From an uncultured Candidatus Saccharibacteria bacterium (GTDB lineage: Bacteria; Patescibacteriota; Minisyncoccia; Minisyncoccales; GWA2-46-15), in assembly GCA_964551525.1 (NCBI GenBank), contig CAZKCH010000001.1:1831-65830 (forward strand): a stretch of DNA of 64,000 nt. Reading direction: 5' to 3'. Below, piece after piece: positions 30,413-46,730 of the stretch. Every line of letters begins with the position of its first letter. Position 1 is the stretch's first letter. Made by a program: the position numbers and the translations under genes. The notes under the pieces were generated by a model, which saw only the letters and a list, made by a program, of their open reading frames with translations, did no database searches and had not been told where the DNA came from.

Positions 30413-30431
30413 CCGGAGCAACTCTGAGAAG
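30413..30431 (+). promoter_or_regulatory. 16S trailer half of rRNA processing stem
   Basis: Complementary to 27046-27067. Additional local hairpins (ctagac-ttttt-gtctag; gttgaaaat...attttcaac) at 30320-30395. Confidence 0.55.
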
Positions 30432-30481
30432 TTTCCCCTCCAATACTAAAACCCGGAGCAAAGCGCAGCGGGTGATTTTGG

Positions 30482-31837: not shown

Positions 31838-33798
31838 ATTACTTTTAATATTTTCCGCGGCCCGGCCGGCGTTTCTTGGCTAAAAACAATCTCAACATGG
31901 TCTGAAACTGAAAGATTATCGCTGCCGGGAAAACTCTTTCTTGAATCATCGTCTAAGATAATATAATCAATTTTTTCAACGCAAGCCAAGCCCAAGTCGT
32001 TGTTAAATATCTTTTTCGCATTAGATTGGTGCTGGCTAATGTCCAAACCCTCGGTGATAAGCCAGCTTTCATAACCGAGATAAATTGGCCGGCCAGCCAG
32101 AAACAACGGCATCGGGTCCACTAAGGCCGGCGTCAAAAACAAAGAATCGGGTAAAGTATTTTCTTTTATCCATTGGCCGGCTCGAACTTTTTCTTGATCA
32201 GAGTCAGAATAGCCGAAATAATGGCGATAGAGCAATCTTGCGGAAAAATCAATGGCGCCCGCCAAAGTGCCGAAAAACACAATGGCGATAATGACCAATA
32301 AACCGATAACTTTTTTCTTTGAAAGAAAAACCAAAATCGGGCCGATGCCAAAAATAATTGCCAGAATCCACCAGTAAAAAAGGATTTTGCCGTTATCAAA
32401 GGGCCAGACCTGAAAGAGAAATAAGTTGGGAAGAATAAACAAAACCATTGAGGCAATAAGAAACTCCGATTTAAAACCGAGGTCAAGCTTTTTCCGAAAA
32501 CGAGAAAGAATAAAAAGAAAAAGAGCCGCCAGCCAAAACCAGAAAACAACACCGAAATTCTTTGACCAAAATACGAAAACATTGCTATCAGTGCCGGCTA
32601 ACGTCAGCCAGCCGAGCCACGGCCTAATATTATCGCCCAAACCGTTGGCCGAATTGAAATACAATAACTGGGGAAGAGCCAAAATAGCGGCCAGCCCGGC
32701 AAAAATCAGCCAGGACTTTTTGTTTTTCAAGTTAAACCAAAACAAAGCCGCCATCAGTAAAAACAAAGCTAAAAAGCTATGAATATGAATAAAGGGTAAA
32801 AGTCCGGCAAAAATGCCAAATCGCCAGAAATCCTTGTCCCTACCGTAATGGTAAATACCCAAAAGAATAAGGCAGAAAACAGCCAAACCAAGAGAAAAAG
32901 TCCGCTGGTGCGATAAAAAAGAAATAATCGGCACAATCCAAACAATATTATCGGCGGCTTCTTTCTCAATTGGTTTGCCGCCGGTCCGATTGTCCAAATG
33001 AGTGTATTCGTGCGGCGGATTAGTGAAAAAAGTGCCAAGCGCGGAAAAACCATTTTGCTGCACGAAACCGGAAACATCTTTGAAAAAAGTAATGAATCCC
33101 AAACCGGCGCCGAAAAGAATCAAAACCAAAACCAGAATAGCAACGCCCCTTGAACCGAGAAATCTTCCGGTAAGAGAAAACAATAAAACAATCGCGGACA
33201 GGCCGGAAATCAAAAGAGGCAAGGCGTAAGCGAAAACGCGGCTGGCGCCGAGAAAACGATAGATGGCGGAAATAAAATTAAGCAGAAACGGATAGGTAAG
33301 CGGTGCGCCGGCCATTAAGGGGTGCTGTAAGATAAAATGCTTAGCCGTGGCGAATCTTTCAATAATACTCAAATGCAGGGCGGTGTCGCCCCAGCTGAGA
33401 AAAGAAGTTCGCAACGTGTTATCGGGCGCCTCGAAAAGCACAGTTTTAATCAAAAGAAAATAAAGAACCAAGATTGCCAATAAGGGCAAAAGCCAAAAAA
33501 TTTGCCGCCAGTCCTGTTTTTGCAATTCCGTGGCTATTTCAATAAAAAAACATCGCAATGATTTAATCCGCAAGGCAAGAACGACCAAGGCCAAGGCGCT
33601 GAAAAGGATAATGGCCAAAAACAACGAGCCGGTGGCCAAGGCGGCCAAAAGGATCAAAAAACCGCTGACAATTAAACCCGTAATCAGGCTGGCAAAAAAT
33701 CTTTCGAAACAAGACAATTTTTCCTGCCGGTCAAAAAAACCGAAAACCGCCAGGCCGAAAAGAAATTGGAAAATAAGAAAAATTAAAGGGATGATCAT
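31828..33798 (-). CDS. large polytopic membrane protein, putative GT-C-like glycosyltransferase
   Basis: More than 14 TM helices plus a C-terminal soluble domain. Overlaps the downstream PMT-like gene by 10 nt (operon). No firm family assignment. Confidence 0.3.
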   Translation of the reverse strand: MIIPLIFLIFQFLFGLAVFGFFDRQEKLSCFERFFASLITGLIVSGFLILLAALATGSLFLAIILFSALALVVLALRIKSLRCFFIEIATELQKQDWRQIFWLLPLLAILVLYFLLIKTVLFEAPDNTLRTSFLSWGDTALHLSIIERFATAKHFILQHPLMAGAPLTYPFLLNFISAIYRFLGASRVFAYALPLLISGLSAIVLLFSLTGRFLGSRGVAILVLVLILFGAGLGFITFFKDVSGFVQQNGFSALGTFFTNPPHEYTHLDNRTGGKPIEKEAADNIVWIVPIISFLSHQRTFSLGLAVFCLILLGIYHYGRDKDFWRFGIFAGLLPFIHIHSFLALFLLMAALFWFNLKNKKSWLIFAGLAAILALPQLLYFNSANGLGDNIRPWLGWLTLAGTDSNVFVFWSKNFGVVFWFWLAALFLFILSRFRKKLDLGFKSEFLIASMVLFILPNLFLFQVWPFDNGKILFYWWILAIIFGIGPILVFLSKKKVIGLLVIIAIVFFGTLAGAIDFSARLLYRHYFGYSDSDQEKVRAGQWIKENTLPDSLFLTPALVDPMPLFLAGRPIYLGYESWLITEGLDISQHQSNAKKIFNNDLGLACVEKIDYIILDDDSRKSFPGSDNLSVSDHVEIVFSQETPAGPRKILKVICP

Positions 33799-33904
33799 CT
33801 TGCTCTATTTTAGCATGGGGAAATCGCAATTTAAACCAATGGAATTCTTGCTGTCGCCTAAATTTTTTGCTATCCTAAAACCAGTTAAAAATTAACTTAA
33901 ATAT

Positions 33905-34468
33905 ATGCCTATTTCTGCCAAATTAGCCAAGTTTTTGAGCCAAAACGAAATTAAATTTGAGGAAATTGAACATCGCACCGTTTATACTGGGCTGGACAAA
34001 GCCGCCACTTTAAGGGTAAAACCAAGCTTGATTGCCAAAACCATTGTTGTAAAATCAGGCAAGGAGTTGGCAATGGGAATACTGGCCGCTAATAGAAATG
34101 TGAATAAAAAGAAATTGGCCAAGGTCAGTAAATTAAAGAATCTTGATTTCATTTCCGAAAAGCTGATGAAATCCAAATTCGTTGGATTCAAAGTCGGCGC
34201 CCTGCCGCCTTTCGGCTTGCTTTTCAAAGTAACGTCGTTTATTGATAGGGGACTGGCTAAGGAAAAATTCGTTTACGCCAGTTCGGGCAACTACGAGATT
34301 TCTTTGAAAATATCGCCGAAAATCCTGGAAAAATTAGGGGCAGCGAAAGCAGATTTCTCTGTCGCAAAGAAAATAAACAAATTTAGCCTTCCGAAGAAGG
34401 TTGCAAAACCAAAACCAAAGAAGAATCCGCCTCGTCGGCAGGCGTCGTTTCCGCGCGCCCGCCGATGA
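33905..34468 (+). CDS. YbaK/ProX-family aminoacyl-tRNA deacylase domain protein with basic C-terminal tail
   Basis: GALPPFG motif and the YbaK fold length. Lys/Arg-rich tail. Confidence 0.6.
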   Translation: MPISAKLAKFLSQNEIKFEEIEHRTVYTGLDKAATLRVKPSLIAKTIVVKSGKELAMGILAANRNVNKKKLAKVSKLKNLDFISEKLMKSKFVGFKVGALPPFGLLFKVTSFIDRGLAKEKFVYASSGNYEISLKISPKILEKLGAAKADFSVAKKINKFSLPKKVAKPKPKKNPPRRQASFPRARR

Positions 34469-34478
34469 GGCGCAAAAC

Positions 34479-34550
34479 GGGCGTGTGGCTCAACGGTAGA
34501 GCGCGTTCCTGATAAGAACGAGGCCGAAGGTCCGACTCCTTCCACGCCCA
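34479..34550 (+). tRNA. tRNA-Ile (anticodon GAU)
   Basis: Acceptor gggcgtg/cacgccc, D-arm gctc-aacggta-gagc, anticodon loop ctgataa, T-arm gaagg-tccgact-ccttc. Confidence 0.85.
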
Positions 34551-34603
34551 TAACACGAGTATTTAGGATTTAGAAGTTAGAAGATAGAAAACGCCTGATT
34601 TCC

Positions 34604-34676
34604 GGGCCGTTGGCGCAGTTGGTAGCGCGCTTCATTTGCAATGAAGAGGTCGCCGGTCCGAATCCGGCACGGTCCA
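34604..34676 (+). tRNA. tRNA-Ala (anticodon UGC)
   Basis: Acceptor gggccgt/acggtcc with G3:U70, anticodon loop tttgcaa, T-arm gccgg-tccgaat-ccggc. Confidence 0.85.
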
Positions 34677-34830
34677 CAGTAGTAGTTTTTTAGAATTTAG
34701 AGTTTAGTATTTAGAGTTTCATTTCCCAGGGGTGCCGGATCACCGCAGAGCGGGATCCCGTCTTACGGGATCACCGCGAAGCGGGACTCCGCTACGCGGA
34801 GGTGGCCAATCGGGACAAAAAATACAAAAA

Positions 34831-35079
34831 ATGTATACTGTTTATATCTTAAGAAGTTTAAAATCTAAAAGGTTCTATATTGGACAAACAAATAATATCG
34901 CGGATAGATTAAGAAGACATAATCGAGGATTGGTCAAATCAACAAAATGGTTTATACCTTGGGAAATAGTCATAACAGAAAACTTTAATAATAGAAGCGA
35001 CGCATATAAACGCGAACAAGAGATCAAAAAATTTAAGTCCGGAATATTGTTTAAAAAAATAATTACCAGGGATGGCTGA
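34831..35079 (+). CDS. GIY-YIG nuclease domain protein (small, standalone)
   Basis: YTVYILRS...KRFYIGQTNNIADRLRRHN is the GIY-YIG core. Likely start is the ATG at 34831 (the track ORF starts at 34732 inside a direct-repeat region). The 3' end overlaps tRNA-Tyr by 14 nt. Confidence 0.55.
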   Translation: MYTVYILRSLKSKRFYIGQTNNIADRLRRHNRGLVKSTKWFIPWEIVITENFNNRSDAYKREQEIKKFKSGILFKKIITRDG

Positions 35080-35138
35080 GCGGTTAAGGCGCTGGTCTGT
35101 AAAACCAGTCTAGGTAGGTTCAACTCCTACTCCCTGGA
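35066..35138 (+). tRNA. tRNA-Tyr (anticodon GUA), type I (short variable arm), C1:G72
   Basis: Acceptor ccaggga/tccctgg, D-arm with GG, anticodon stem ctggt/accag with loop ctgtaaa, 5-nt variable loop, T-arm gtagg-ttcaact-cctac. Confidence 0.65.
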
Positions 35139-35167
35139 TCAACTACTACCAAACAAAAGATCGCCAA
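35136..35167 (+). repeat. direct repeat copy 1 (att-like) at tRNA-Tyr 3' end
   Basis: ggatcaactactaccaaacaaaagatcgccaa. A near-identical copy lies at 37752-37783. Confidence 0.55.
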
Positions 35168-35282
35168 GAAGGCGATTTTTTGATATGCAACATCATTAAA
35201 TTAGTTCGCTAGACTTAGTTGGTTATCTGTGCTAATTTTCTTATAGTAAACCTTCGATGTTTCACGGTTCAAGGAGGACCAT

Positions 35283-35912
35283 ATGAAACTCAAACTTTCC
35301 GACCTGATCGCTCTTTTGTACTTTGCGGCTATAACCGCATTCATCTTCCTGGCCAAGGACACTTTCATCTATCTGACCAAGACCTATCCTTACCCGATGG
35401 GTTTTATCAAGGTCGGGCTACTGGCCACCTTCGGCGAATGCCTGAAATACAGACTGACCAATCACAAATGGATCCCGTACAAGATCTGTCTTCGTTTCCT
35501 TGTCTGGGGGCTCTTTGGCATCTGGTTCGCCGCTGCCTTCCCGTATTCTGACGGAGGCGTTGTCGCCCTCGACAACGGCGGGCTATGGCCTGGCGCCTCG
35601 GCGCTATCCAAAAGCGCCTGGATCAACATCCTCGGCGGTTACGCCTTCTTCATGATGTTCATCCACTACTGGATGGATACGATGATTGCCGAAGGACCGT
35701 GCTGGCCATGGAAGATTTTCGGGACACCACAGTCGGTAAAGTGGGCGAAGATTGTCTTCATCGCCATGTTCGTCTGGTGGTTGCCGGCCCATACCTTCAC
35801 CTTTTCCCAACCGCCGGAATGGCGAGTCGTGATCGCCGCCTATCTTTCGGTCAGCCTCGGCCTGATCCTAGCCTTTGCATCAGGTTTCGAGGTGAGGAAA
35901 ACTATCACCTAA
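35283..35912 (+). CDS. polytopic membrane protein, foreign (high-GC) origin
   Basis: By eye about 52-55% GC versus about 40% around it, with GC-rich codon usage. Preceded by a canonical SD (aaggagg, 5-nt spacer), unlike other genes here. 5-6 TM helices. Confidence 0.5.
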   Translation: MKLKLSDLIALLYFAAITAFIFLAKDTFIYLTKTYPYPMGFIKVGLLATFGECLKYRLTNHKWIPYKICLRFLVWGLFGIWFAAAFPYSDGGVVALDNGGLWPGASALSKSAWINILGGYAFFMMFIHYWMDTMIAEGPCWPWKIFGTPQSVKWAKIVFIAMFVWWLPAHTFTFSQPPEWRVVIAAYLSVSLGLILAFASGFEVRKTIT

Positions 35913-36189
35913 ACAAGTAAGAGACGCATCGTAACGGTGCGTCTCTTTACTTACTTAAATTCTAAACAGGTTCTAACGTCGTCCCGTAGGCAGGACCAAA
36001 AAACTTTATTAGCGACTAAGTGATTGAGTGATTAGGACAATCGCCTCTATGCCGTTTCTCAGGCTGGGCAGTTTTTTTGACCAAAAATATGATATAATTA
36101 ATTTAATAAAAGAGTTGATGAACACGTTCGTGAAATTAAGGGCATTTTAACATAACACTTGACGATCACTACTTGACAACATATCATCT

Positions 36190-36567
36190 ATGATATATAC
36201 TGATAACATAGATTATAAAGTAAATTTTTACAGAAACTCTCAAACCAGTAAAAGTCCTGTTTTAGAGTATATAAACAATCTAAGTCATAAAGAAAGGGCA
36301 AAAATCTTAAAATACGTTGAATTCCTAAGGGAACACAAGGGGTATCTAGACGAACCATATTCAAAACACGTCAAGGGAAAAATTAGAGAATTAAGGATAG
36401 ATTTTGGCAAAAACAGATTCAGAATCTTCTACTTTACATTCATCAAGAAAACGATAGTTCTGCTTCACGCGTTCTTGAAGAGAACCGAAAAAACGCCAAT
36501 TAAAGAAATCAAGAAAGCTGAAGAAAATTATTACGACGTCTTAAATAATCCGAAATTATATGAATAG
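36190..36567 (+). CDS. type II toxin, HigB/RelE-like (phage Gp49-like addiction module killer)
   Basis: About 125 aa. Gp49/HigB-like blocks (KIRELRIDFGKNRFRIFYF...IVLLHAFLK). Overlaps the downstream HTH gene by 8 nt. Confidence 0.6.
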   Translation: MIYTDNIDYKVNFYRNSQTSKSPVLEYINNLSHKERAKILKYVEFLREHKGYLDEPYSKHVKGKIRELRIDFGKNRFRIFYFTFIKKTIVLLHAFLKRTEKTPIKEIKKAEENYYDVLNNPKLYE

Positions 36568-36874
36568 AACAAAGAAAATACAAAAAGCAGTTGATTTTCA
36601 AGAATACTTGAAAAGTCAATTGAAAAATCCCGAGGTCAAGAAACACTATGACGAATATGGTAAACGCCTGGAAATCGCTTACCAGATTTTAAGGTTGCGC
36701 AAACAGAAAAAAATGTCGCAAGTGGAATTGGCCAAGAGAATCGGCACCAAACAAAGCAACATCGCCCGCCTAGAAACGGGCCAGCAAAATTTTACTACCG
36801 AAACCCTGCAGAAAATAGCTTTGGTCTTTAACCGCGATCTCAGAATAGAATTCTGCTCGCCAAACAAGTTCTAA
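36560..36874 (+). CDS. HTH XRE-family antitoxin (HigA-like)
   Basis: MSQVELAKRIGTKQSNIARLETGQQNFT is a classic Cro/C1-type HTH. Confidence 0.7.
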   Translation: MNRTKKIQKAVDFQEYLKSQLKNPEVKKHYDEYGKRLEIAYQILRLRKQKKMSQVELAKRIGTKQSNIARLETGQQNFTTETLQKIALVFNRDLRIEFCSPNKF

Positions 36875-36909
36875 CCCATTCGTCGTTTCCTAACTCCTCA
36901 GGGCAAGCT

Positions 36910-36958
36910 GTCGTCCCGTAGGCAGGATACGAGTTTATTAGCAATTAGTTATTAGTTT
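36910..36958 (+). repeat. intergenic repeat unit (gtcgtcccgtaggcagga ... tttattagcaattagttattag)
   Basis: Same unit at 35978-36036. Related copies at 37737-37754 and 38600-38625. Confidence 0.5.
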
Positions 36959-36970
36959 TTAGCACTGACG

Positions 36971-37010
36971 AAACCGCCTTTTTATTAGGGCGGTTTTTTG
37001 GTATAATTTA
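36971..37010 (+). promoter_or_regulatory. hairpin/T-run terminator fused to extended -10 promoter (TGGTATAAT), leaderless start
   Basis: aaccgcc...ggcggtt stem, tttttt, tggtataat, then ATG 6 nt later. The same architecture (GGTTTTTTGGTAnAGT) recurs at 37821-37877, 38896-38937 and 39402-39437. Confidence 0.55.
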
Positions 37011-37013
37011 GAT

Positions 37014-37643
37014 ATGAGAACATATACTTTTATTGATGCCTCCAATTTATTTTACGGCGGGGAAAAGAATTTAGGATGGAAAATCGACTATCAAAAGCTT
37101 TTGTATTATTTAAAAGAAAAATATGGAGTTTCTCGGGTCTTATATTTTGGCGGTATAGAATTGCATGGTTTTAAGTTTGATTATCTCAAAGAGGAAACTG
37201 TGCCGGTTGAAAAAGCGGAAAACTATCTTTCCTCATTAGTCAAAGAGAAGGGTGATAAATTTACTGAAGCAATATTGTTATTAATTAACCGACATCTACA
37301 ACGAGCTCGTTTTTACTCAAAACTACAGAAATTCGGCTATGATCTCCATCTGAAGCCGGTTAAACTTTATGAACAGGAAGATGGCACGACTAAAAGAAAA
37401 GCGAACTGCGATGTCGATATGACATTCCATCTAATGAAGGAAAAAGATAATTTTGACAGAGCGCTTATTCTTTCCGGCGACGGAGACTTTTTACCAGTTT
37501 TGAAATTCCTAAAACAAAATGGTAAAGAGATAATCGTTCTGGCTCGTGGTTCGCGAACCGCCAAAGAAATCAGGCAATTTGCTGGTAGTAATTTTCGAGA
37601 TTTTGAATATCTAAAATATCTTCTAAAAATGGACTTGAAATAA
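37014..37643 (+). CDS. NYN-domain (LabA/PIN-like) predicted ribonuclease
   Basis: FIDASNL N-terminal Asp block and a LSGDGDFLPVL block typical of NYN/LabA-like proteins. Confidence 0.6.
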   Translation: MRTYTFIDASNLFYGGEKNLGWKIDYQKLLYYLKEKYGVSRVLYFGGIELHGFKFDYLKEETVPVEKAENYLSSLVKEKGDKFTEAILLLINRHLQRARFYSKLQKFGYDLHLKPVKLYEQEDGTTKRKANCDVDMTFHLMKEKDNFDRALILSGDGDFLPVLKFLKQNGKEIIVLARGSRTAKEIRQFAGSNFRDFEYLKYLLKMDLK

Positions 37644-37751
37644 AAACGAAGCGGACTCGTATAGAATCCGCTCCACGTTTAGTAGTTTCATTATACCTCG
37701 ACTGGCAACAGTGTCAACCTCCTAAAAAGGTCTAATGTCGTCTCGTAGAGA

Positions 37752-37783
37752 GGATCAACTACTACCAAACAAAGAATCGCCAA
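37752..37783 (+). repeat. direct repeat copy 2 (att-like)
   Basis: ggatcaactactaccaaacaaagaatcgccaa matches the tRNA-Tyr 3' flank (35136-35167) at 30 of 32 positions. Confidence 0.55.
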
Positions 37784-37820
37784 ACCCGCCCGCAACACTT
37801 CGTGTAGCGATGTGGGTAGG

Positions 37821-37877
37821 GGGGCGGCCTGCCCCGTAGTGAACTTGTTCTACTACAGGGTTTTTTGGTAGAGTACA
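37821..37877 (+). promoter_or_regulatory. hairpin/T-run + extended -10 (TGGTAGAGT) module
   Basis: ggggcggcctgcccc and gtagtgaac..gttctactac hairpins, tttttt, ggtagagt, then ATG 7 nt later. Confidence 0.5.
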
Positions 37878-37881
37878 ATAT

Positions 37882-38508
37882 ATGACTAGAAAAATTCATA
37901 AGAACTATTTTGATATAGTAATACTGCCAACAAAAGAAATTGGAGATTATTCTATTGCTCTAAGTAAACGGCTGCATAAATATGGATCAAATTCAATTTT
38001 AGGCAGAAAATCCTTTTTGCCCCATATTTCTCTTTATCACATTTCGATAAAAAAGAGGGATTTCGGGAATTTTATTGCTGAAATAGAGAAGATAACAAAT
38101 GATTTTAAGACGGGGCAGCTGGAAATCAAAGACCTGATATTATGGAAAGGCCATCGTTCGGTTCTTCTAATGACGAACAAACCGAAGTGGCTAAAAAATC
38201 TACACCTAAAAATAATAAAAGGGACATTAAAATATTTTAACTGGGATTACGGTATAGAGAAACTATGGAATCTTGATCACTGGTCTAAACTTATGCAGAA
38301 AAACATAAAACAATACGGAACGCCATTGGTAGGGAGATATTTTATGCCACACATCACATTAGGTGTATTAAATGATAAGAAGGGAGTAGTAAAGTTTTTT
38401 AACAAACTGAAGCTTAAAAAATATAAATTCAATCCTGTTTGTATCTACGTTTGCGAAATTGGCGAAGATCATACTTGTCAAAAAATAGTAAGAAAGATTC
38501 GTTTTTAA
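37882..38508 (+). CDS. 2H phosphoesterase superfamily protein (LigT/CPDase-like)
   Basis: Two H-x-S/T-x motifs (PHISLYH, PHITLGV) with appropriate spacing. Confidence 0.6.
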   Translation: MTRKIHKNYFDIVILPTKEIGDYSIALSKRLHKYGSNSILGRKSFLPHISLYHISIKKRDFGNFIAEIEKITNDFKTGQLEIKDLILWKGHRSVLLMTNKPKWLKNLHLKIIKGTLKYFNWDYGIEKLWNLDHWSKLMQKNIKQYGTPLVGRYFMPHITLGVLNDKKGVVKFFNKLKLKKYKFNPVCIYVCEIGEDHTCQKIVRKIRF

Positions 38509-38640
38509 CTTAGATTGTTCTTAAACGGGTCAACCCTTCAGTGTGATTCAGGGCCGGCTCTTTGATATGACTCAGGGCAAGTAGAGAAGGTCATGAAAGT
38601 GGCTAAGTGATTAAGTGGTTGAGTGGCCAAAACCAGAGAT

Positions 38641-38669
38641 TTGACAGCGATTATCTAAAGAATATAATG
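38641..38669 (+). promoter_or_regulatory. canonical sigma70-type promoter (TTGACA-17-TATAAT)
   Basis: ttgacagcgattatctaaagaatataat, 8 nt upstream of the Zn-ribbon ORF ATG. Confidence 0.5.
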
Positions 38670-38676
38670 GAAACGT

Positions 38677-38850
38677 ATGATGATAATTAAGTGCAATATA
38701 TGTAAAAAGACGATAAAGGGCAATGATCCCGTAACGGCAAGCGGGGGATTTGCCTCGAGAGTTGAATTATGCGAAAAATGCGGTTTGCCGATAATCAAAT
38801 TCTTGAAAAAACATAAATTTATAGCGGGCGGGACGCCCGATATATCGTAA
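38677..38850 (+). CDS. small zinc-ribbon protein (57 aa), not in ORF track
   Basis: MMIIKCNICKKT...VELCEKCGLP carries two CxxC pairs. Consensus promoter immediately upstream. Confidence 0.4.
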   Translation: MMIIKCNICKKTIKGNDPVTASGGFASRVELCEKCGLPIIKFLKKHKFIAGGTPDIS

Positions 38851-38895
38851 TCGCTATTAAAGAAAAACGATAGAGATTTCATCGCGGAATTTATC

Positions 38896-38937
38896 TCGTA
38901 TAAACCCTGTATTTACGCGGGGTTTTTTGGTAGAGTA
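38896..38937 (+). promoter_or_regulatory. hairpin/T-run + extended -10 (TGGTAGAGT) module
   Basis: Stem around ccctgtatttacgcgggg followed by ttttttggtagagt. Confidence 0.45.
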
Positions 38938-38954
38938 AAAAATAGAAATAAACC

Positions 38955-39368
38955 ATGAATATTAAACTAGCGACAGAAATAATTTTTCTACTCTGCATCA
39001 CGACTTTAGTTGTGACCATAATATTATCCAAATTATTTAGAGTAGAGCTTAAAAACACCGACCCCTCGGATATACCACCGGCGATGTGGTATATCGCAAT
39101 AATATCCGTAGTTTTGTTAGCTGCCGAAGGTACGGCGTGGTATTTTGAATCGCCAGAAACGGTTCCTAATGCGAAAAACGGTTTTCTGTTTGGACTTATG
39201 GCTGCCACCGTTGGTTTTATTAGCGACATACTTCTTTTAATTCCGCATAAGAATGGATCTAATATTTTGTTGGGCTATTATACTAAACCATGGTATTGGG
39301 CGGCATTTATCCTAATTTTAATCGTCTGCACCTTAGTTGGTTTTATAATGGCCAAAAGGGGCATATAA
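38955..39368 (+). CDS. hypothetical 4-TM membrane protein
   Basis: Four hydrophobic helices. No recognisable domain. Confidence 0.35.
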   Translation: MNIKLATEIIFLLCITTLVVTIILSKLFRVELKNTDPSDIPPAMWYIAIISVVLLAAEGTAWYFESPETVPNAKNGFLFGLMAATVGFISDILLLIPHKNGSNILLGYYTKPWYWAAFILILIVCTLVGFIMAKRGI

Positions 39369-39401
39369 TCCTTCGATGAAGTTTATGGTGAGCTTGTCGA
39401 A

Positions 39402-39437
39402 CCGCTCAGGACAAAAAGGCGGTTTTTTGGTAAAGTA
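39402..39437 (+). promoter_or_regulatory. hairpin/T-run + extended -10 (TGGTAAAGT) module
   Basis: ccgc..gcgg stem, tttttt, ggtaaagt, then ATG 7 nt later. Confidence 0.45.
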
Positions 39438-39443
39438 AGCAAT

Positions 39444-40040
39444 ATGATAAAGGCAGCGATATTCGACCTTAACGGAATATTTATTCAAGGCCCAAGATTG
39501 AGCGATAGATTCAAGGAGATTTTTGGTATTGAAACAAAAGATTTCTTGCCCGTGTTAAAAGAGATCATGGCAAAGATAAGAAAACCAAATGCGGGGAGTG
39601 CTTTTAGCCATTGGAAACCATATTTGGAGAGATGGAATGTCAGTCTGACGGAAGAACAGTTCCTTGATTTTTGGTTCGGTGCTGAAAAAGAAATTCCAGA
39701 ATTAATTGAATTGGCAAAACAGATAAAAACGAAAGGTGTTAAAGTGTTTATCCTGTCAAATAATTTTGCCGAAAGAGCCGATTATTATAAAAAGAGTTCT
39801 CCGTTCTTAACAGAAATTCCTGATAAAGTTTATTATTCTTGGCAAACGGGTTTCGTCAAACCGGACCCACAAGCATTCAAGAATCTGTTAACCGAGAACA
39901 ATCTTGAACCCGAGGAATGTATTTATTTTGATGATTTAGAAGAAAATATTAAAGTGGCAAACGACTTAGGAATGAAGGCCTTCCTTTATAATAACGTTAT
40001 CGGCTTAGAGGAAGCCCTGAGGAACAATCGGGTAATCTAA
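39444..40040 (+). CDS. HAD-superfamily hydrolase (subfamily IA-like phosphatase)
   Basis: AIFDLNGIF (motif I variant DxN), ILSNN (motif II-like) and YFDDLEENI (motif IV). Confidence 0.55.
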   Translation: MIKAAIFDLNGIFIQGPRLSDRFKEIFGIETKDFLPVLKEIMAKIRKPNAGSAFSHWKPYLERWNVSLTEEQFLDFWFGAEKEIPELIELAKQIKTKGVKVFILSNNFAERADYYKKSSPFLTEIPDKVYYSWQTGFVKPDPQAFKNLLTENNLEPEECIYFDDLEENIKVANDLGMKAFLYNNVIGLEEALRNNRVI

Positions 40041-40141
40041 TTCATCAAACAGGTTTCCAGCCTACGGCTGGTCAACCGAAGCAAGGGGCGAGCTGTCAAT
40101 CCCGTATTCAAAGCTTTAATATAAAGAAACAAACCGTATTT

Positions 40142-40906
40142 ATGAAATACTATCCAACTTTATTGCACGAGAAAGCCGCAAATAAAATGGTGGAGATTTT
40201 CAGTAGAGATAAATCGGTAATGAGCATCTTACTGACTTGTTCTTGCGCTAGGGGAAAGGCGTCGAAGGACTCCTGTCTGGACATATGCTTAATTGTAAAA
40301 AACAAGAATGATATTAAAAATATCAAAAGCAAATTTAATAAAGTTTATGGCCGAGATAAAATATTAAAGGGGCTTTCGAGGGCAGGGAAATACTCTCACA
40401 TAGATATAGAAATAACTGACGGAAAGATTATTCCCGTCGAAAGGGGATGGACCTCCGGTCCCGATGAATACGAATTAGAGATCGGAAACGTTTTCATCTA
40501 TTCAATGGTTTTATTCGACAGAAATAATCATTTTAAGAGACTAAGAAAGAACTATACCCCTTATTATTACGAGGGCCTGAGAAGAAAAAGATTAAAAGAA
40601 GTGAAGGAATTCATGTTTAACAACCTGGGCCACGTCCCTCTGCTCGTTAAAAGAAAACTATACTTCCAGGCCTTTAAAAGGTTTTATGATGCCACCAGGG
40701 AATTCTTGCAGGCGCTCTTTATAGAGAACAAAAAATACCCGATTGCTTATGATAAATGGGTAAAAGACCAACTAACAGAAATACTCGATAAGCCCGAACT
40801 TTACAAGGAATTCGTGGCCTTGTATGAGATTAAAAAACTGGAAAGCAACGAACTGGCCCTAAAAGCCGATAAGCTTAAAAAATTAGCAAAAAGATATTTA
40901 CCTTAA
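40142..40906 (+). CDS. pol-beta-superfamily nucleotidyltransferase, kanamycin nucleotidyltransferase (ANT(4')/KNTase)-like
   Basis: CSCARGKASKDSCLDICLIV matches the GS...SD.D minimal NTase signature. The 254-aa length and helical C-terminal domain resemble KNTase. Confidence 0.5.
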   Translation: MKYYPTLLHEKAANKMVEIFSRDKSVMSILLTCSCARGKASKDSCLDICLIVKNKNDIKNIKSKFNKVYGRDKILKGLSRAGKYSHIDIEITDGKIIPVERGWTSGPDEYELEIGNVFIYSMVLFDRNNHFKRLRKNYTPYYYEGLRRKRLKEVKEFMFNNLGHVPLLVKRKLYFQAFKRFYDATREFLQALFIENKKYPIAYDKWVKDQLTEILDKPELYKEFVALYEIKKLESNELALKADKLKKLAKRYLP

Positions 40907-40957
40907 GTTATATCGAAGGACTTGCCCTGAGCCGGGTCGAAGGGATAGAATAATACA

Positions 40958-42073
40958 ATGACTACTGAAGAACGGCTTGATCTCGTCAAACAAGTAGGGG
41001 AGGAGATTACCACCGAAGAAGAGCTGCGGCGGCTTTTAGAAACCGAAAAGAACTTGGTTGCCTATGACGGCTTTGAGCCCTCGGGCCAGATTCACATTGC
41101 CCAAGGTCTTTTACGCGCCATCAATGTCAACAAAATGATTAAGGCCGGCATCAAGTTTAAAATGCTGGTGGCTGACTGGCATGCGATGTGTAATGACAAA
41201 ATGGGCGGCGATCTGGAAAAAATTAAAATCGTGGGCCAATATTTCATTGAGGTTTGGCGGGCTTACGGCATGGATTTGAAAAACGTGGAGTTTGTTTGGG
41301 CTTCGGACTTAGTTAAAAACAGCAAATATTGGGAATTAGTTTTAAAGGTGGGCCGGACTAATAAACTGGCGCGCTTTATCAGAACCGCGGAATTCATGGG
41401 CCGAGAAGCAGCCGCGGAAACCTTGTCAGCGGCTCAGTTGTTTTATCCCTGCATGCAAATTGCTGATATTTTTACTCTGGGCGCCAAGATCACTCAATTA
41501 GGCATGGACCAGCGCAAAGTTAATATGTTGGCCCGGGAGATCGGATCCCAGCTCGGTTTTTGGAAACCAATAGTAATTTCACACCACATGCTCATGGGTT
41601 TGGATCAACCCCCCTCCGCCAATGCTTCGGAGGGCGAGGCCGCCATTGATAAAACCGCCAGGACCATAGCCCTCAAGATGTCTAAATCGAATCCTGATAA
41701 TGCGATTTTTATGACTGATTCAAAAGAAGAGATTGAAAGAAAAATTAACAAGGCCTGGTGCCCGGAAGGGGAGAGCCAAGAAAACCCGATTCTGGAATAC
41801 TGCCGTTATATAATTTTTGAATCCCTGGACCGACTTGGAACCAAAGAGATAAAAATTGAAAGACCGGAAAAATTCGGCGGCACCATTACGGTCAAATCCT
41901 ATGCTAAATTAGAAACGCTTTTCAGCCAGAAACAAATCCATCCCCAAGATCTGAAAAAAACAGTCGCCGAACTCTTAAACAAACTAATAGCGCCGGTCAG
42001 AGAACACTTTATCAAGGACAAGAGAGCGAAAAAACTGCTTGAACAAGTGACAGGTTTTGCCGTAACAAGATAA
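40958..42073 (+). CDS. tyrS: tyrosine--tRNA ligase, archaeal/eukaryotic type
   Basis: Strong collinear similarity to Methanocaldococcus-type TyrRS: YDGFEPSGQIHIAQG (HIGH), KMSKS, IERPEKFGGTITVKSYAKLETLFSQKQIHPQDLKKTVAELLNKLIAPVRE. Confidence 0.85.
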   Translation: MTTEERLDLVKQVGEEITTEEELRRLLETEKNLVAYDGFEPSGQIHIAQGLLRAINVNKMIKAGIKFKMLVADWHAMCNDKMGGDLEKIKIVGQYFIEVWRAYGMDLKNVEFVWASDLVKNSKYWELVLKVGRTNKLARFIRTAEFMGREAAAETLSAAQLFYPCMQIADIFTLGAKITQLGMDQRKVNMLAREIGSQLGFWKPIVISHHMLMGLDQPPSANASEGEAAIDKTARTIALKMSKSNPDNAIFMTDSKEEIERKINKAWCPEGESQENPILEYCRYIIFESLDRLGTKEIKIERPEKFGGTITVKSYAKLETLFSQKQIHPQDLKKTVAELLNKLIAPVREHFIKDKRAKKLLEQVTGFAVTR

Positions 42074-42154
42074 GTGGTATAATATTTTAATACCCAAAGG
42101 TCGACAATAATAGTGATTAGTTATTAGAAATTAGTTTTTTAACTTTTTACAAAT

Positions 42155-42835
42155 ATGCCTCAAGATTGGTTATCAGTAACCGTTGGCGCCCTCCAAGACC
42201 TTTGGCTTGGATTCTTGTATTTTATCCCGAATCTGATCGGCGCCGTAGTTGTTTTCGTTGTCGGCTGGCTCGCTTCTTCGTGGGTCGGCTGGGGAGTATC
42301 GAAAGTATTAAATCTTGCTAAATTGAACCAGCTTTTTGCCCGCGGCCAGTGGGATGAGGCCTTAGAAAAGGCCGGCATCAAAGCTGATGTCGCCGGTTTC
42401 ATCGGCCAGATTTGCCGCTGGATTCTGGTTTTGGTTTTCTTATCCGCCGCAGTGGAGATTCTCGGCCTGACGCAATTTGCTTCTCTTTTCGGACAAATAA
42501 TCGCCTGGCTGCCTAATGTGGTGGTGGTTGTTTTGATTATGGTCGTCGCCGTGATTGTCGCTGACATCTTAGAAAAATTAGCTGTCGCTTCAGTAGCGAG
42601 AGCAAAAATAAAATCCACTCAAGCCGTGGCTTTAGTGGTCAGATGGTCAATTTATATCTTCACTGTTCTAGTTGTTCTGATGCAATTGAAAATCGCTTCG
42701 CCCTTAGTCCAAACCGTGCTCACCGGCGTGATCGCCCTATTGGTGATTGCCGGCGGCTTGGCCATTGGCTTAGGTGGAAAGGATTTGGCAAAAGAAATCC
42801 TGGAAGACATTTACCGAAAGCTTAAGAACGAATAA
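42155..42835 (+). CDS. membrane protein with repeated conserved TM-helix units (MscS-N-terminal-like)
   Basis: Internally repeated hydrophobic helix plus amphipathic segments. No catalytic motif. Confidence 0.35.
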   Translation: MPQDWLSVTVGALQDLWLGFLYFIPNLIGAVVVFVVGWLASSWVGWGVSKVLNLAKLNQLFARGQWDEALEKAGIKADVAGFIGQICRWILVLVFLSAAVEILGLTQFASLFGQIIAWLPNVVVVVLIMVVAVIVADILEKLAVASVARAKIKSTQAVALVVRWSIYIFTVLVVLMQLKIASPLVQTVLTGVIALLVIAGGLAIGLGGKDLAKEILEDIYRKLKNE

Positions 42836-42867
42836 TTACCCGGGTTTTGACGTTAATTGGATCTCGC

Positions 42868-42892
42868 TTCGCCCCGGCTTTCAGCCGGGGCG
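42868..42892 (+). terminator. rho-independent terminator
   Basis: ccccggctttcagccgggg hairpin. A second hairpin/T-run (gcttcgaagcggtttttt) lies at 43022-43045. Confidence 0.5.
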
Positions 42893-42896
42893 GGCT

Positions 42897-42925
42897 ATTG
42901 ACAAACATATTCGTATTTAATACAA
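42897..42925 (+). promoter_or_regulatory. candidate rRNA promoter (TTGACA-17-TACAAT)
   Basis: ttgacaaacatattcgtatttaatacaat. A second TTGACA lies at 43133, upstream of the 23S leader. Confidence 0.4.
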
Positions 42926-43805
42926 TCAAAAATACTCTTAGATTTAAACATTCCTATGAATACCATTCTTTATACTCTCACCAAAAGAAGCGGCTAATTC
43001 CTTAGGATTTTTTATTGCCTAAGCGACCGCTTCGAAGCGGTTTTTTCTTTTCTCGCGCCGGCATTGACGCTGAATAAAAAATTGGCGGTAAAACCGGATT
43101 GAGAACCAAAAAACGAAAGAAAAAGAACGGACTTTGACAACTTAATAAAATTCTAGCTAATTAAGTAAAAACTCCTTAAATTTACAGACGAATCTGGTGA
43201 ATCTAAGGAGGGTAAGAAATTGTGGTTACAACAGGTTGATGGCGGATGCCTTGGAAAGTCGAGGCGACGAAGGACGTGGCGTGACTGCGATAAGCTCCGG
43301 GGAGGTGTCAAGCAACCCGTGAACCGGAGATGTCCGAATCTGGAAACAGGGCCGCGCAAAACGCGGTCGACCCCGAGCGCAAGTGAGGGGTAGCGTACCT
43401 GGGGAAGTAAAACCTTTCAGTACCCAGAGGAAAATAAAACAATGTTTCGTGTTTTACACGAGATGATTCCCTTAGTAGCGGCGAGTGAAAAGGGAAATAG
43501 CCTAGAGTTCTAAGCTTCGCAAGAAGCTTGGAGCAGTTAAAAGAGAGCGACGCCTGAAGTTTTCCCCTTTATCCCGAGAGAAATCGAGGGACAAGGAGAA
43601 AACTTTGGAAAGAGTAAAAAAATTGATTGTTAGCCAAAGTCCCCTGGAAAGGAACACCAAAGAGGGTAATAGTCCCGTAGGCGAAAACGATCAATCTCTT
43701 AGTCTCTTAGTCCCGCAAGGGACAAATCTTAAGTACTATAGGGCATGATAAATCTATAGGAAGTCGGCTGAACTACTTTCAAGCCAAGGCTAAATACTCG
43801 ACTTT

Positions 43806-43844
<39 letters not shown>

Positions 43845-45279
43845 CAGCCCGGCGAGGGCGATGAAATAGTACCTGAAACCATCTAACCTACAAAGAGTCG
43901 GAGCCCCACAGAGCGCAAGCTTTTGCGGGGTGACGGCGTACTTTTTGGAGAACGAGCCAACGAGTTGTTGTGCATAGTTGTCTAACCCCGTTAAACGGGG
44001 GAAGGCAAAGCGAAAGCAAGCGTTAATAGCGCGACTAAAACTGTGCACCCCAGACCCGAAGCCAAGCGAGCTTGCCAGCGTCAGGGTGAATCCCGCCGAA
44101 GGGCGAGAAGAAGCCCGTACCTGTGAGCCGTGCAATACTCTAGGACGAACGGTGGCACGAAGAGAAAACCTAAACGAGCTTGGTAATAGCTGGTTCTTCC
44201 CGAAATAGCTTTTGGACTAGCTCCGCCGTATTATATTTTTCAGGGGTAGAGCACTGAAAAGAATATCGTGGCTTTTAGCCAGGTATTCTTATCAAACTCC
44301 GAATACTGAAAAATTCAGGCGGAAGTAAGAACCCGGGCGCTAAGGTCCGGGCTCAAAAGGGAAACAGCCCAGACCTTCATCTAAGGCCCCCAAGTTTAAA
44401 CTAAGTGCTAGGAAGGAAGTGATTTTCCTATGATAGTCAGGAGGTGAGCTTAGAAGCAGCTACCCTTTAAAAAGTGCGTAACAGCTTACTGATTAAGGAA
44501 TTTCGCACCAAAGATTAACGGGGCTCAAGTTTAACGCCGAAGATAAGGGCCCGCCCACATCTGCAAAGTTGTGGCGGGCGGTAGGGAAGCGTCCTTTGTT
44601 CAGCGAAGCCCCTCCGTAAGGTCGGGGTGGAGAACAAGGGAGTGAGAATGTTGGCATGAGTAACCGCAATCCGGGTGAGATCCTCGGACACCGAAAGCCC
44701 AAGATTTCCTTGGCAATGATTTTCAGCCAGGGGTTAGGCGGCCCTAACACTGCGACCAAATGGCCTCAGTGGATGGACAGCCGGTTAATATTCCGGCCCT
44801 TCGGTTGTTTTTCAAAAGGGTGACGCAATCAAAGTTCTTGATAGGATTATTGGATTTCCGAGAGTCGAGATTTATCTCGACCGTTTCAAGAATCAGATTG
44901 CCAAGAAAAACCCTGAGATTTAAAACAACCGGATCCGTATCGCAAACCGACACAGGCAGGCAGGTCGAGTAGACCAAGGTGAACGGGTGAAAGCTCCTGA
45001 AGGAACTCGGCAAAAAAGCTACCCGTAAGTTCGCAAGATGGGTTGCCCCGACCCGCAAGGGTTATGGGGCCGCAGCTAACGATTCCTTAGCGACTGTTTA
45101 TCAAAAACACAGGCTCCTGCTTAACTCGTAAGAGGAAATATAGGAGCCGAGACCTGACCAGTGCTGGAACGTCAAACTCGACGATTTTACCGCAAGGTAA
45201 AACTGATCGAGCTAAGCGCCAGTGAACGTCCGCTCTAACTCTGAGAGTGTTAAAGTAGCGTAACCCCTTGTCAGGTAAG

Positions 45280-46035: not shown

Positions 46036-46568
46036 TTCTGACCCGCATGAAAGGTTTCACGACTAAGGAACTGTCTCCAGGAGTTGCCCGGTGAAAATGC
46101 AGTAGGGGTGAAGATGCCCCTTACCTGCGGCTAGACGGAAAGACCCCGAGAGCTTCACTGTAAGGTGGTATTGGATTTTGGGTTTGGATGCGTAGCGTAG
46201 TAGGGAGGATTTGAAGTCCCGTTTTTGGACGGGATGGATCCGACAATGAAACACCTATCTTTTAAACTCTCAATTCTAATTCCGCTGATGAAGCGGATAA
46301 CAGTGCCACCCCGGCAGTTTAAGTGGGGCACTTGCCTCCCAAAAAGTACTGGAGGCGTTTAAAGGTCGGCTAGCTCCGGATGGAAATCGGAGCGATAGGG
46401 CAAAGCCATAAGCCGGCTTTACTGCAAGGCGGATATGCCGCGCAGTTGGGAAACCAGAACTTAGTGAACCGATGCGTCATAGTAGAAGGCGCAAAGATCA
46501 ACAGACAAAAGTTACCTCGGGGATAACAGGCTAGTAGGGCCCGCGAGTCCACATCTACGGCCCTGTTC

Positions 46569-46601
<33 letters not shown>

Positions 46602-46730
46602 GTGAAGCAGCTCCCAAGGGTCTGGCTGTTCGCCAGTTAAAGTGGTACGTGAGCTGGGTTCAAACCGTCGCGAGACAGGTTGGTCCCTATCTACCGCAGG
46701 CGTTGAGTCTTGAGGAGAGTCTCGGACAGT

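Follow-up and report, generated by a model that had tools for sequence, protein, structure and literature searches.

An archaeal/eukaryal-type TyrRS and an arm-less C1:G72 tRNA-Tyr in the 16S–23S interval of a CPR bacterium

Introduction

Canonical bacterial tRNA-Tyr is a class II tRNA with a G1:C72 first pair and a long variable arm, which is bound by the S4-like domain of bacterial TyrRS. The TyrRS/tRNA-Tyr pair of Methanocaldococcus jannaschii serves as an orthogonal pair for genetic code expansion. According to the available part of Iraha et al. 2010 (PMC2887954), the TyrRS and tRNA-Tyr of Escherichia coli have been replaced by an archaeal pair, on which alone the bacterium lives. Closest to the present case, the available part of Mukai, Reynolds, Crnkovic and Soll 2017 (Life 7:8; PMC5370408) describes archaeal-type TyrRS near the DPANN enzymes in CPR bacteria, together with C1-G72 tRNA-Tyr genes, with the variable arm present or absent, in OP11/Roizmanbacteria and other CPR groups.

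An archaeal-style tyrosine pair in CPR bacteria is already known, and because the same system has been published for CPR, Roizmanbacteria included, the pair that we describe here from 64 kb of contiguous DNA (the whole of which we call the window) is not a discovery. That paper probably did not include the window genome. Compared with the published system, shared gene order links the arm-less tRNA-Tyr of the window to arm-bearing counterparts on related contigs; this tRNA-Tyr is fused to a GIY-YIG cassette, and in the window's sub-lineage it lies with its synthetase gene within the 16S–23S interval. The accessible sections of PMC5370408 make no mention of these features. We propose that the bacterial TyrRS of this CPR host was very probably replaced by an archaeal/eukaryal-type enzyme, and that the resident tRNA-Tyr adapted to it stepwise.

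The pair lies between bacterial rRNA genes

The host is a CPR/Patescibacteria bacterium, as the preliminary description had it in calling the host bacterial, because tRNA-Tyr and tyrS sit between bacterial 16S and 23S genes and among murC, mreC and PBP2. For all of the window's rRNAs, the bacterial SSU, LSU and 5S models win in Rfam, and the same contig encodes MurC, PBP2/MrdA, MreC, a bacterial LysRS and ribosomal protein S2. The genome collection contains many records with placeholder titles; where titles are meaningful, the matches of S2 and TyrRS are Patescibacteria groups, those of S2 being Parcubacteria and Nealsonbacteria and not Roizmanbacteria.

The 16S rRNA gene (27090–30314, plus strand; Rfam RF00177 in two pieces) is interrupted twice, each insertion encoding a LAGLIDADG endonuclease (ORFs 27780–28382 and 29166–29663; Pfam LAGLIDADG_2 and LAGLIDADG_3). 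Downstream on the same strand lies the 23S and 5S region (43219–47963; RF02541, RF00001 and Pfam), with the 23S gene at 43219–46735, a LAGLIDADG ORF inside it at 45508–45993, a further LAGLIDADG ORF at 46895–47386 and the 5S gene at 47855–47963. These coordinates therefore place the tRNA-Tyr/tyrS pair inside a 13-kb 16S–23S interval, which also contains tRNA-Ile(GAT) and tRNA-Ala(TGC) (34479–34550 and 34604–34677, plus strand; ARAGORN, Rfam).

That DNA of DPANN origin was joined to a bacterial contig during assembly or binning has a negligible probability in our view. CPR and DPANN organisms do co-occur, and composite genomes can contaminate each other (PMC5370408, available part), but here bacterial 16S and 23S rRNA genes flank the pair. 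Over 34009–43682, from tRNA-Ile through the 5′ end of the 23S gene and thus over the junctions, the window is 100% identical to a separate Logan assembly, and the same gene order recurs in assemblies from other samples (loci L082, L086, L087, L092 and L093).

tyrS encodes an archaeal/eukaryal-type enzyme

The product of tyrS (40958–42073, plus strand; 371 aa) is an archaeal/eukaryal-type tyrosyl-tRNA synthetase. It scores 378.4 bits against NCBIfam NF006330 (PRK08560; cutoff 220), the model that its archaeal/eukaryal-type PDB matches fit, and 106.6 bits against TIGR00234, which is under the cutoff of that model (113.8). Its PDB matches are eukaryal and archaeal TyrRS (best 1e-97; 2cya 3e-79), and it scores better against the eukaryal, 2cya and 2cyc enzymes than against that of M. 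jannaschii (1j1u, 1.5e-51). The alignment with 1j1u nevertheless spans residues 6–349, bearing out the earlier proposal that tyrS is of archaeal type and that its collinearity with the M. jannaschii enzyme extends through the anticodon-binding domain. The two proteins share their architecture and are 43% identical; an insertion before KMSKS and about 20 extra residues at the C-terminus make the window enzyme the longer one. Relative to the canonical bacterial enzymes (T. thermophilus, E. coli), only the class Ic core is distantly related: 1h3e, which we take to be the bacterial-type TyrRS of Thermus thermophilus, matches at only 1.6e-7, with the alignment restricted to the catalytic half. Pfam finds tRNA-synt_1b only (residues 30–343 of 371) and no C-terminal S4-like domain, and the C-terminal end is collinear with the eukaryal and archaeal enzymes in the PDB matches.

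The determinants of tyrosine and tRNA recognition are conserved. The class I signature motifs read HIAQ and KMSKS, and Y32, Q155, D158 and Q173 (M. jannaschii numbering throughout) are invariant in the TyrRS alignment, Y32 and D158 being presumably tyrosine-binding residues. D286, which we take to read G34, does not vary among the enzymes of the window, CPR, DPANN and M. jannaschii, nor do R132, R174 and K175. The latter three residues of the M. jannaschii enzyme read C1:G72 (PMC1934993).

TyrRS matches that are 63–83% identical to the window enzyme are, where meaningfully named, Roizmanbacteria, Microgenomates or Patescibacteria; records labelled Woesearchaeota or Nanoarchaeota reach 57–61% identity. 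A phylogeny, which the preliminary description had called for, gave a concordant picture: in a neighbour-joining tree without support values, the window TyrRS falls within a single CPR clade with DPANN adjacent. Both this tree and the identity ranking group it with a clade of sequences deposited as Roizmanbacteria and other CPR names.

A class I tRNA-Tyr with a C1:G72 first pair

The tRNA-Tyr(GUA) gene (35066–35138, plus strand) and tyrS share a strand and are 5.8 kb apart, in line with the roughly 6 kb first reported. ARAGORN calls it tRNA-Tyr(gta), the fold and anticodon originally assigned, and it scores 58.9 bits against the Rfam tRNA model (gathering score 29). Its parts read CCAGGGA UG GCUG AGCGGUUA AGGC G CUGGU CUGUAAA ACCAG UCUAG GUAGG UUCAACU CCUAC UCCCUGG A. 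This is a class I tRNA of 73 nt with C1:G72, A73, a 5-nt variable loop, G13–A22 in the D-stem and no encoded CCA, so the class, loop and first pair given in the preliminary description are upheld, with A73 in addition. The archaeal/eukaryal identity set (C1:G72, A73, GUA anticodon and short variable loop) is present in full, as in the M. jannaschii tRNA, and the canonical bacterial class II set (G1:C72 plus long variable arm) is absent. In an alignment of the window gene with seven homologous tRNA-Tyr genes that adjoin related tyrS genes, pairing is kept in 95% of cells and 12 of the 21 pairs are altered on both sides; C1:G72 (8/8) and C2:G71 are invariant while neighbouring pairs covary. We infer that the window TyrRS charges the window tRNA-Tyr.

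That the GIY-YIG cassette left this gene behind as a decaying or non-functional by-product, with the working tRNA-Tyr elsewhere, is very unlikely. The gene is fused directly to a mobile-looking cassette with an orphan tRNA 5′ fragment 340 nt upstream, its Rfam score is below those of the neighbouring tRNAs, and its 15–48 pair would by sequence reading be G–G. Against decay, all four stems are intact; T-loop, U8, A14, GG and U33 are canonical; and where the gene differs from that of the closest locus, L093 (D-stem, anticodon stem and pair 7:66), pairing is preserved. Moreover, a terminator-like hairpin (ATCGCC-AAGAA-GGCGAT followed by TTTTTT; 35160–35182, plus strand) stands 21 nt 3′ of the gene; the opposite-strand hairpin scan lists the same hairpin.

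The tRNA-Tyr appears to be a remodelled bacterial tRNA

Related loci connect the arm-less gene to arm-bearing ones. The order Ile-Ala-Tyr is common to L082, L086, L092 and L093, tRNA-Tyr following the Ile and Ala tRNAs directly in the relatives. In the syntenic L082, L086 and L092, tRNA-Tyr is 83 nt long with C1:G72, A73 and a 14-nt arm, and matches the window gene at 14–15 of 17 positions of the acceptor region, the D-arm GAGCGG..AA also being common to both. The tRNA-Tyr of L093 has a 15-nt arm, and its acceptor and T stems are identical to those of the window. With C1:G72 in the arm-bearing syntenic genes and the same stems in L093, the window gene looks like a recent arm deletion. Overall, the tRNA-Tyr genes of the window and L093 are 79% identical, compared with 84–93% for the neighbouring cassette, and the D-stem and anticodon stem diverge far more than the cassette does, which indicates that more than a simple arm deletion happened; patchy gene conversion may have taken place at tRNA-Tyr.

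With its GAGCGGYYAA loop and G13–A22, the D-arm of the window tRNA-Tyr belongs to the bacterial class II type, as in canonical bacterial tRNA-Tyr and unlike that of M. jannaschii. Because of this D-arm and the arm-bearing syntenic counterparts, we read the gene as a bacterial tRNA-Tyr with its first pair flipped and its arm lost. The initial notion of a coherent non-bacterial pair thus holds for the TyrRS, which on these gene comparisons is alone non-bacterial by descent, and fails for the tRNA, which is by the same comparisons a remodelled bacterial tRNA-Tyr and not an archaeal import. A ready-made pair transferred from an archaeon is highly improbable. It would account for a tRNA that has every archaeal identity mark only 5.8 kb from tyrS, and for the class I tRNA-Tyr genes 0.2–3.2 kb from tyrS in eight related loci; yet the gene occupies the bacterial Ile-Ala-Tyr slot, in which its counterparts retain the long arm, and no tRNA-Tyr adjoins tyrS in any DPANN-labelled locus. 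The D-arm, the Ile-Ala-Tyr slot and the arm-bearing relatives with the same acceptor stem all speak against archaeal descent of the tRNA.

The types of the genes, their conserved determinants, the bacterial context and the arm-bearing counterparts that share the gene order are, with the prior literature, what we base the alternative of enzyme replacement with stepwise tRNA adaptation on. In this scenario, the bacterial TyrRS would have been exchanged for an archaeal/eukaryal-type enzyme whose nearest non-CPR relatives are in DPANN archaea. Lacking the S4-like domain, the new enzyme would have nothing to hold a long variable arm, and it retains the readers of C1:G72 (R132, R174 and K175) and D286. 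As a first step, pair 1:72 of the resident tRNA-Tyr would have been flipped to C1:G72 with the long arm still in place, as in related genomes; in the window lineage the useless arm would then have been deleted, leaving a class I tRNA of archaeal look. The enzyme would thus have been imported and the tRNA remodelled, unlike in the engineered E. coli strain, into which both partners were imported (PMC2887954, available part).

The pair would also be the only tyrosine pair in the cell. We consider it very unlikely that it is auxiliary to a canonical bacterial TyrRS and a G1:C72 long-arm tRNA-Tyr elsewhere in the genome. The visible genome is 64 kb, bacterial and archaeal Trp pairs (TrpRS-A) coexist in some CPR bacteria, and one Roizmanbacteria genome has two tRNA-Tyr genes (PMC5370408, available part); both of those genes, however, have C1-G72 (same source). 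Within the 64-kb window there is neither a second class Ic synthetase (phmmer, maximum sensitivity) nor another tRNA-Tyr (ARAGORN). Furthermore, the tRNA-Tyr of the Ile-Ala-Tyr cluster is already C1:G72 in L082, L086 and L092, and C1 is found in all 13 tRNA-Tyr genes read, whether on a locus with a related tyrS or in the Ile-Ala-Tyr slot.

A GIY-YIG cassette at the 5′ end of tRNA-Tyr

Immediately upstream of tRNA-Tyr is a small ORF of 82 aa (34831–35079, plus strand), a GIY-YIG nuclease as predicted from sequence (Pfam PF01541, 7e-16, 58.7 bits against a gathering score of 22.6). Its TGA stop coincides with nt 12–14 of tRNA-Tyr, so the ORF overlaps the tRNA 5′ end by 14 nt. An orphan copy of tRNA-Tyr nt 1–14 (CCAGGGGTGCCGGA; 34726–34739, plus strand; MAFFT) lies 48 nt 3′ of tRNA-Ala and 340 nt upstream of tRNA-Tyr, a position that corresponds to the tRNA-Tyr slot of three syntenic relatives without the cassette; MAFFT set the fragment against the tRNA-Tyr of L086 and L082. 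The window contains the 9-mer CCAGGGGTG a single time. Between the orphan 5′ end and the ORF is a G+C-rich hairpin region (34737–34810, plus strand; repeat search and folding) in which the 19-nt repeat GGATCACCGCNNAGCGGGA is present twice (0.07 expected); the region has a fold z-score of -3.1 and matches no Rfam family.

The orphan fragment and hairpins are kept at 93% in L093. Because the cassette is 84–93% identical between the window and L093, whereas tRNA-Ala is 68% identical and the spacers are unalignable, the comparison suggests that the whole cassette may travel, or be converted, as one piece among divergent CPR genomes. A tentative and rather doubtful extension is that a selfish GIY-YIG mini-cassette invades tRNA genes and has its working end in tRNA-Tyr here. 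The parts of this mini-cassette would be the orphan tRNA 5′ end, the G+C-rich hairpins, the ORF (about 82 aa) and a complete tRNA that has been regenerated, and it could bring tRNA alleles along, the identity-switched arm-less tRNA-Tyr included. If so, a homing-like element could spread a remodelled tRNA identity horizontally, and what is captured in the window would be the final step in converting a bacterial tRNA-Tyr into one of archaeal kind.

The closest precedent is SegB of phage T4, a free-standing homing endonuclease of the GIY-YIG type that is encoded within a cluster of tRNA genes and drives preferential inheritance of its own tRNA gene region (PMC2330249, available part). Both are GIY-YIG genes amid tRNA genes; compared with SegB as described there, the window ORF is chromosomal, has about 82 aa with the nuclease as its sole Pfam domain, overlaps a tRNA 5′ end and is flanked by partial tRNA duplicates. 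Of 80 metagenome loci with homologous GIY-YIG cassettes, 61 have the cassette next to a tRNA gene, with partial tRNA duplicates in 39 of those 61; together with the overlap and the orphan copy at tRNA-Tyr, this association may be new.

A class I tRNA-Tyr and a TyrRS of archaeal/eukaryal type

ARAGORN identified four tRNAs in the window, one of which is tRNA-Tyr(gta) at 35066–35138 on the plus strand (58.9 bits against the Rfam tRNA model). Its 73 nt read, by parts, CCAGGGA-UG-GCUG-AGCGGUUA-AGGC-G-CUGGU-CUGUAAA-ACCAG-UCUAG-GUAGG-UUCAACU-CCUAC-UCCCUGG-A, with C1:G72, an A73 discriminator, a 5-nt variable loop and no encoded CCA; the class I fold, short variable loop and first pair claimed in the preliminary description are confirmed. 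We aligned this tRNA with seven homologous tRNA-Tyr genes that adjoin related tyrS genes: 95% of the cells in the cloverleaf pair, and 12 of the 21 pairs show two-sided changes. Because C1:G72, like C2:G71, is invariant while nearby acceptor pairs (3:70, 4:69, 5:68 and 7:66) covary, the 1:72 pair is constrained. The gene is followed, after 21 nt, by a hairpin (ATCGCC-AAGAA-GGCGAT) and T6, which makes it probable that tRNA-Tyr and tyrS are transcribed as separate units.

The tyrS ORF (40958–42073, plus strand; 371 amino acids (aa)) starts 5.8 kb from the tRNA, close to the 6 kb first estimated. Its product scores 378 bits against NCBIfam NF006330 (cutoff 220), falls below the TIGR00234 cutoff and has no Pfam domain other than that of the class I W/Y catalytic family; S4 is absent. 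The top PDB matches are eukaryal and archaeal TyrRS (best, 1e-97), and 2cya and 2cyc match at 3e-79 and 7e-78. The Methanocaldococcus jannaschii enzyme (1j1u) aligns across residues 6–349 at 1.5e-51; together with the NF006330 score, this bears out the proposed archaeal type and collinearity with the Methanocaldococcus enzyme. By contrast, 1h3e, which we take to be Thermus thermophilus TyrRS, reaches only 1.6e-7, in the catalytic half. Apart from tyrS, phmmer run at maximum sensitivity on all stop-to-stop ORFs of the window found no further class Ic synthetase (paralogue of TyrRS or TrpRS).

We then compared the window TyrRS with two enzymes from the candidate phyla radiation (CPR), several from DPANN archaea and that of M. 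jannaschii (sequence identical to 1j1u). R132, R174 and K175 are invariant across this alignment, as are D286, the contact for G34, and the tyrosine-pocket residues Y32 and D158. In the M. jannaschii complex, R132, R174 and K175 contact C1:G72 (PMC1934993). We predict that the window TyrRS can read the window tRNA-Tyr.

The pair is anchored between bacterial rRNA genes

The host had been described as a bacterium, and the markers on the contig concur: the bacterial SSU, LSU and 5S covariance models outscored their clan rivals on the window rRNAs, and murC, PBP2/mrdA, mreC, a bacterial class II lysS and rpsB are present. The 16S rRNA gene (27090–30314) carries two insertions with LAGLIDADG ORFs (27780–28382 and 29166–29663); in the 23S region (43219–47386), one such ORF lies within 23S (45508–45993) and another between 23S and 5S (46895–47386). 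CPR bacteria are known for rRNA genes interrupted by LAGLIDADG-encoding insertions. Where S2 homologues are named, they belong to groups of Patescibacteria, Parcubacteria and Nealsonbacteria among them, and named TyrRS homologues belong mostly to Roizmanbacteria and Microgenomates; at group level, the host is a CPR bacterium. CPR rRNA insertions are treated by Tsurumaki et al. 2024 (cited in PMC13011429).

A 13-kb interval (30315–43218) separates 16S from 23S and contains both tRNA-Tyr and tyrS. A chimeric assembly that joined an archaeal fragment to a bacterial contig is very unlikely, because the pair sits between bacterial 16S and 23S genes and the stretch that runs from tRNA-Ile into the 5′ end of 23S (34009–43682) is matched at 100% identity by a Logan assembly of SRR13007705. 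The protein genes of the interval encode a PMT-family glycosyltransferase, tRNA_edit, Gp49-family and HTH-domain ORFs, NYN, LigT-like and HAD proteins, TyrRS and an MS-channel-like protein, and parts of this layout recur in two related loci, L086 and L087. In the 5.8 kb separating tRNA-Tyr from tyrS, the Gp49-family ORF is followed by the HTH-domain ORF, with which it looks like a toxin–antitoxin pair, and by NYN, LigT-like, HAD and nucleotidyltransferase-like genes. These accessory genes (36001–40000) have a G+C content of about 36%, compared with about 43% elsewhere, and may constitute an acquired island. Proximity of tyrS to rRNA is not a general trait of its relatives, as no rRNA was found near tyrS in 10 genome-collection loci; it is limited to the window's own sub-lineage (L086 and L087).

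TyrRS relatives and the system described in 2017

A genome-collection scan for TyrRS relatives returned 80 loci, many with placeholder record titles. The meaningfully named relatives are Roizmanbacteria, Microgenomates or Patescibacteria metagenome-assembled genomes (MAGs) at 63–72% identity and Woesearchaeota or Nanoarchaeota MAGs at 57–61%. The TyrRS phylogeny suggested in the preliminary description, a neighbour-joining tree rooted on M. jannaschii and without support values, places the sampled CPR enzymes, including that of the window, in one clade beside DPANN; L072, deposited merely as 'bacterium', groups among the DPANN sequences. Mukai, Reynolds, Crnkovic and Soll (Life 2017; PMC5370408) start from a Roizmanbacteria protein, describe C1-G72 tRNA-Tyr with archaea/eukarya-type TyrRS in OD1, OP11, WS6 and WWE3, and infer DPANN archaea as the source of CPR TyrRS. 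They also report that many CPR C1-G72 tRNA-Tyr retain the variable arm and that one Roizmanbacteria genome has both arm-bearing and arm-less forms. The archaeal-style tyrosine pair in a bacterium is confirmed as first written, with its interpretation supported, and is thus a further instance of an already known system.

Several relatives differ in gene architecture. In a few (P0035, P0113 and L016:9524–11110), the archaeal-type TyrRS (about 520 aa) has a fused N-terminal YbaK-like domain, an arrangement that does not appear in the available portions of Mukai et al. A free-standing YbaK/ProX-type tRNA_edit ORF (33905–34468 in the window) lies directly upstream of tRNA-Ile in the window, L082 and L086. 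We considered whether this ORF is the free form of the fused domain and rejected it: the two are not the same orthologue, because they share only 28% identity over 104 aa (E = 0.001). In loci deposited as, or resembling, Roizmanbacteria (L016:6141–11110, L054:4344–9317 and L028:4150–6452), the order is class I tRNA-Tyr, an aminotransferase-like ORF, tyrS, and two of these loci have a prephenate dehydrogenase/dehydratase-like ORF upstream. Going by these labels, which are readings of the sequences, the genes together resemble a tyrosine-related cluster. L088 (TyrRS 75% identical) has a T-box leader (6928–7205), scored at 100 bits, 2.2 kb 5′ of its archaeal-type tyrS, and in L084 (GCA_040961635.1) a second tRNA-synt_1b gene (11083–12084; 333 aa), probably trpS, lies directly 3′ of the archaeal-type tyrS.

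Arm-bearing counterparts point to a bacterial origin of the tRNA

Syntenic relatives, which are the closest ones with usable contigs, bear on where the tRNA came from. L086 (TyrRS 78% identical) has, in order, the 16S end, PMT, tRNA_edit, tRNA-Ile, tRNA-Ala and tRNA-Tyr, then tyrS, secA and mreC; L082 and L092 (both 72%) have the same Ile-Ala-Tyr tRNA cluster upstream of tyrS, and L087 (78%) continues from tyrS to the MS-channel gene, 23S and 5S in the window's order. The tRNA-Tyr of L082, L086 and L092 is 83 nt long, with the acceptor CCAGGGG/CCCCUGG (C1:G72), A73, a class II D-arm and a 14-nt variable arm. It shares 14–15 of 17 acceptor-region positions with the window tRNA, as well as the GAGCGG..AA D-arm, which is present in Escherichia coli tRNA-Tyr but not in that of M. 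jannaschii.

The closest locus is L093, a metagenome contig found through its GIY-YIG gene. Its tRNA-Tyr is identical to that of the window in the acceptor (CCAGGGA/UCCCUGG) and T stem and has a 15-nt arm, UGGCUUCACGCCUUC; alignment of the two leaves a 10-nt gap exactly at the variable arm. The D and anticodon stems differ more than the adjacent DNA does, and all these differences preserve pairing; more than one event separates the two tRNAs. Of the proposed non-bacterial tRNA/synthetase pair, the synthetase half stands, whereas the tRNA is bacterial in its D-arm and has arm-bearing counterparts in the same gene order. On sequence grounds, the window tRNA-Tyr is a remodelled bacterial tRNA and looks like one just past the loss of its arm. 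Synthetase replacement and the 1:72 flip would have come early, and the arm would have been lost late and locally, as fits relaxed selection under an S4-less enzyme.

A bacterium can swap its TyrRS for an archaeal-type enzyme if the first pair of the tRNA follows, and tRNA identity rules are not tied to the domain of life, a point already made in 2017. The window is a clean case: physical anchoring between bacterial rRNA genes answers the contamination worry raised in the 2017 paper. It also adds a gene-order-linked series, from C1:G72 with an arm to C1:G72 without one, which indicates that arm loss follows takeover by an S4-less enzyme. Relative to the parts of PMC5370408 that we read, the refinements are the remodelled bacterial tRNA after arm loss and its fusion to a putative tRNA-gene-targeting cassette. 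Natural C1:G72 pairs are, moreover, candidate orthogonal pairs for genetic code expansion.

A GIY-YIG cassette abuts tRNA-Tyr

The 82-aa GIY-YIG ORF of the window (34831–35079; Pfam, 7e-16) ends in a TGA stop that forms nt 12–14 of tRNA-Tyr. The 5′-terminal 14 nt of the tRNA, CCAGGGGTGCCGGA, recur as an orphan copy 340 nt upstream (34726–34739), in the slot that tRNA-Tyr occupies in L082, L086 and L092, and this copy is followed by G+C-rich hairpins with a 19-nt direct repeat. This G+C-rich element (34726–34830) matched no credible Rfam family, and its predicted fold, as we read it, contains no tRNA fold. The window and L093 share 93% identity in the orphan fragment plus hairpins and 84% in the GIY-YIG ORF, compared with 68% in the flanking tRNA-Ala and 33–55% in the spacers; being better conserved than its flanks, the cassette behaves as a unit. 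We rejected it as the carrier of the arm-less tRNA, because the closest cassette (L093; 84% aa identity) precedes an arm-bearing tRNA-Tyr.

Searching metagenomes with the GIY-YIG protein of the window gave 80 loci (L093–L172), of which 61 adjoin a same-strand tRNA (at most 60 nt after the stop or 120 nt before the start): downstream in 29 (21 overlapping the ORF) and upstream in 33, with L096 counted in both. A copy of tRNA nt 1–14 lies 48–121 nt before the ORF in 16 of the 29 downstream-tRNA loci (0.04 expected), and a partial copy, mostly of the 3′ part, directly follows the ORF in 23 of the 32 upstream-only loci (0.03 expected); overall, in 39 of 61 the ORF is flanked by the tRNA on one side and a partial duplicate of it on the other. 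The ORFs encode about 80–100 aa and adjoin many tRNA species. Cassettes comparable to that of the window (34726–35079) also occur at L027:20187–20510 (minus strand), L034:16527–16933 and L011:18436–18850. Other tRNAs show the same arrangement: nt 1–14 of tRNA-Gln in L034 are repeated exactly 326 nt upstream, the match extending to 18 nt, and L027 has a diverged copy of the tRNA-Lys 5′ part 312 nt upstream. From these arrangements, we infer that the cassette is a small, homing-like element that invades tRNA genes but leaves one tRNA copy intact.

In the literature searched, we found no paper describing GIY-YIG cassettes in tRNA genes, and GIY-YIG is absent from a recent survey that covers group I introns in the tRNA genes of Patescibacteria; the nearest precedent is T4 SegB. 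If undescribed, GIY-YIG cassettes nested in tRNA genes would represent a new kind of small mobile element targeting tRNA genes. Separately, tandem tRNA-Gln fragments at L034:16940–17200 and L011:18750–18860 contain a 39-nt G+C-rich insertion (CCCGTCTCGACGAGGCRAG...GTCGAGCCGAGGCGGA) at two positions, 3′ of the D-loop GG and 5′ of the T-loop, with two copies in one fragment; these may be pseudogenes, inserts resembling introns or a miniature mobile element.
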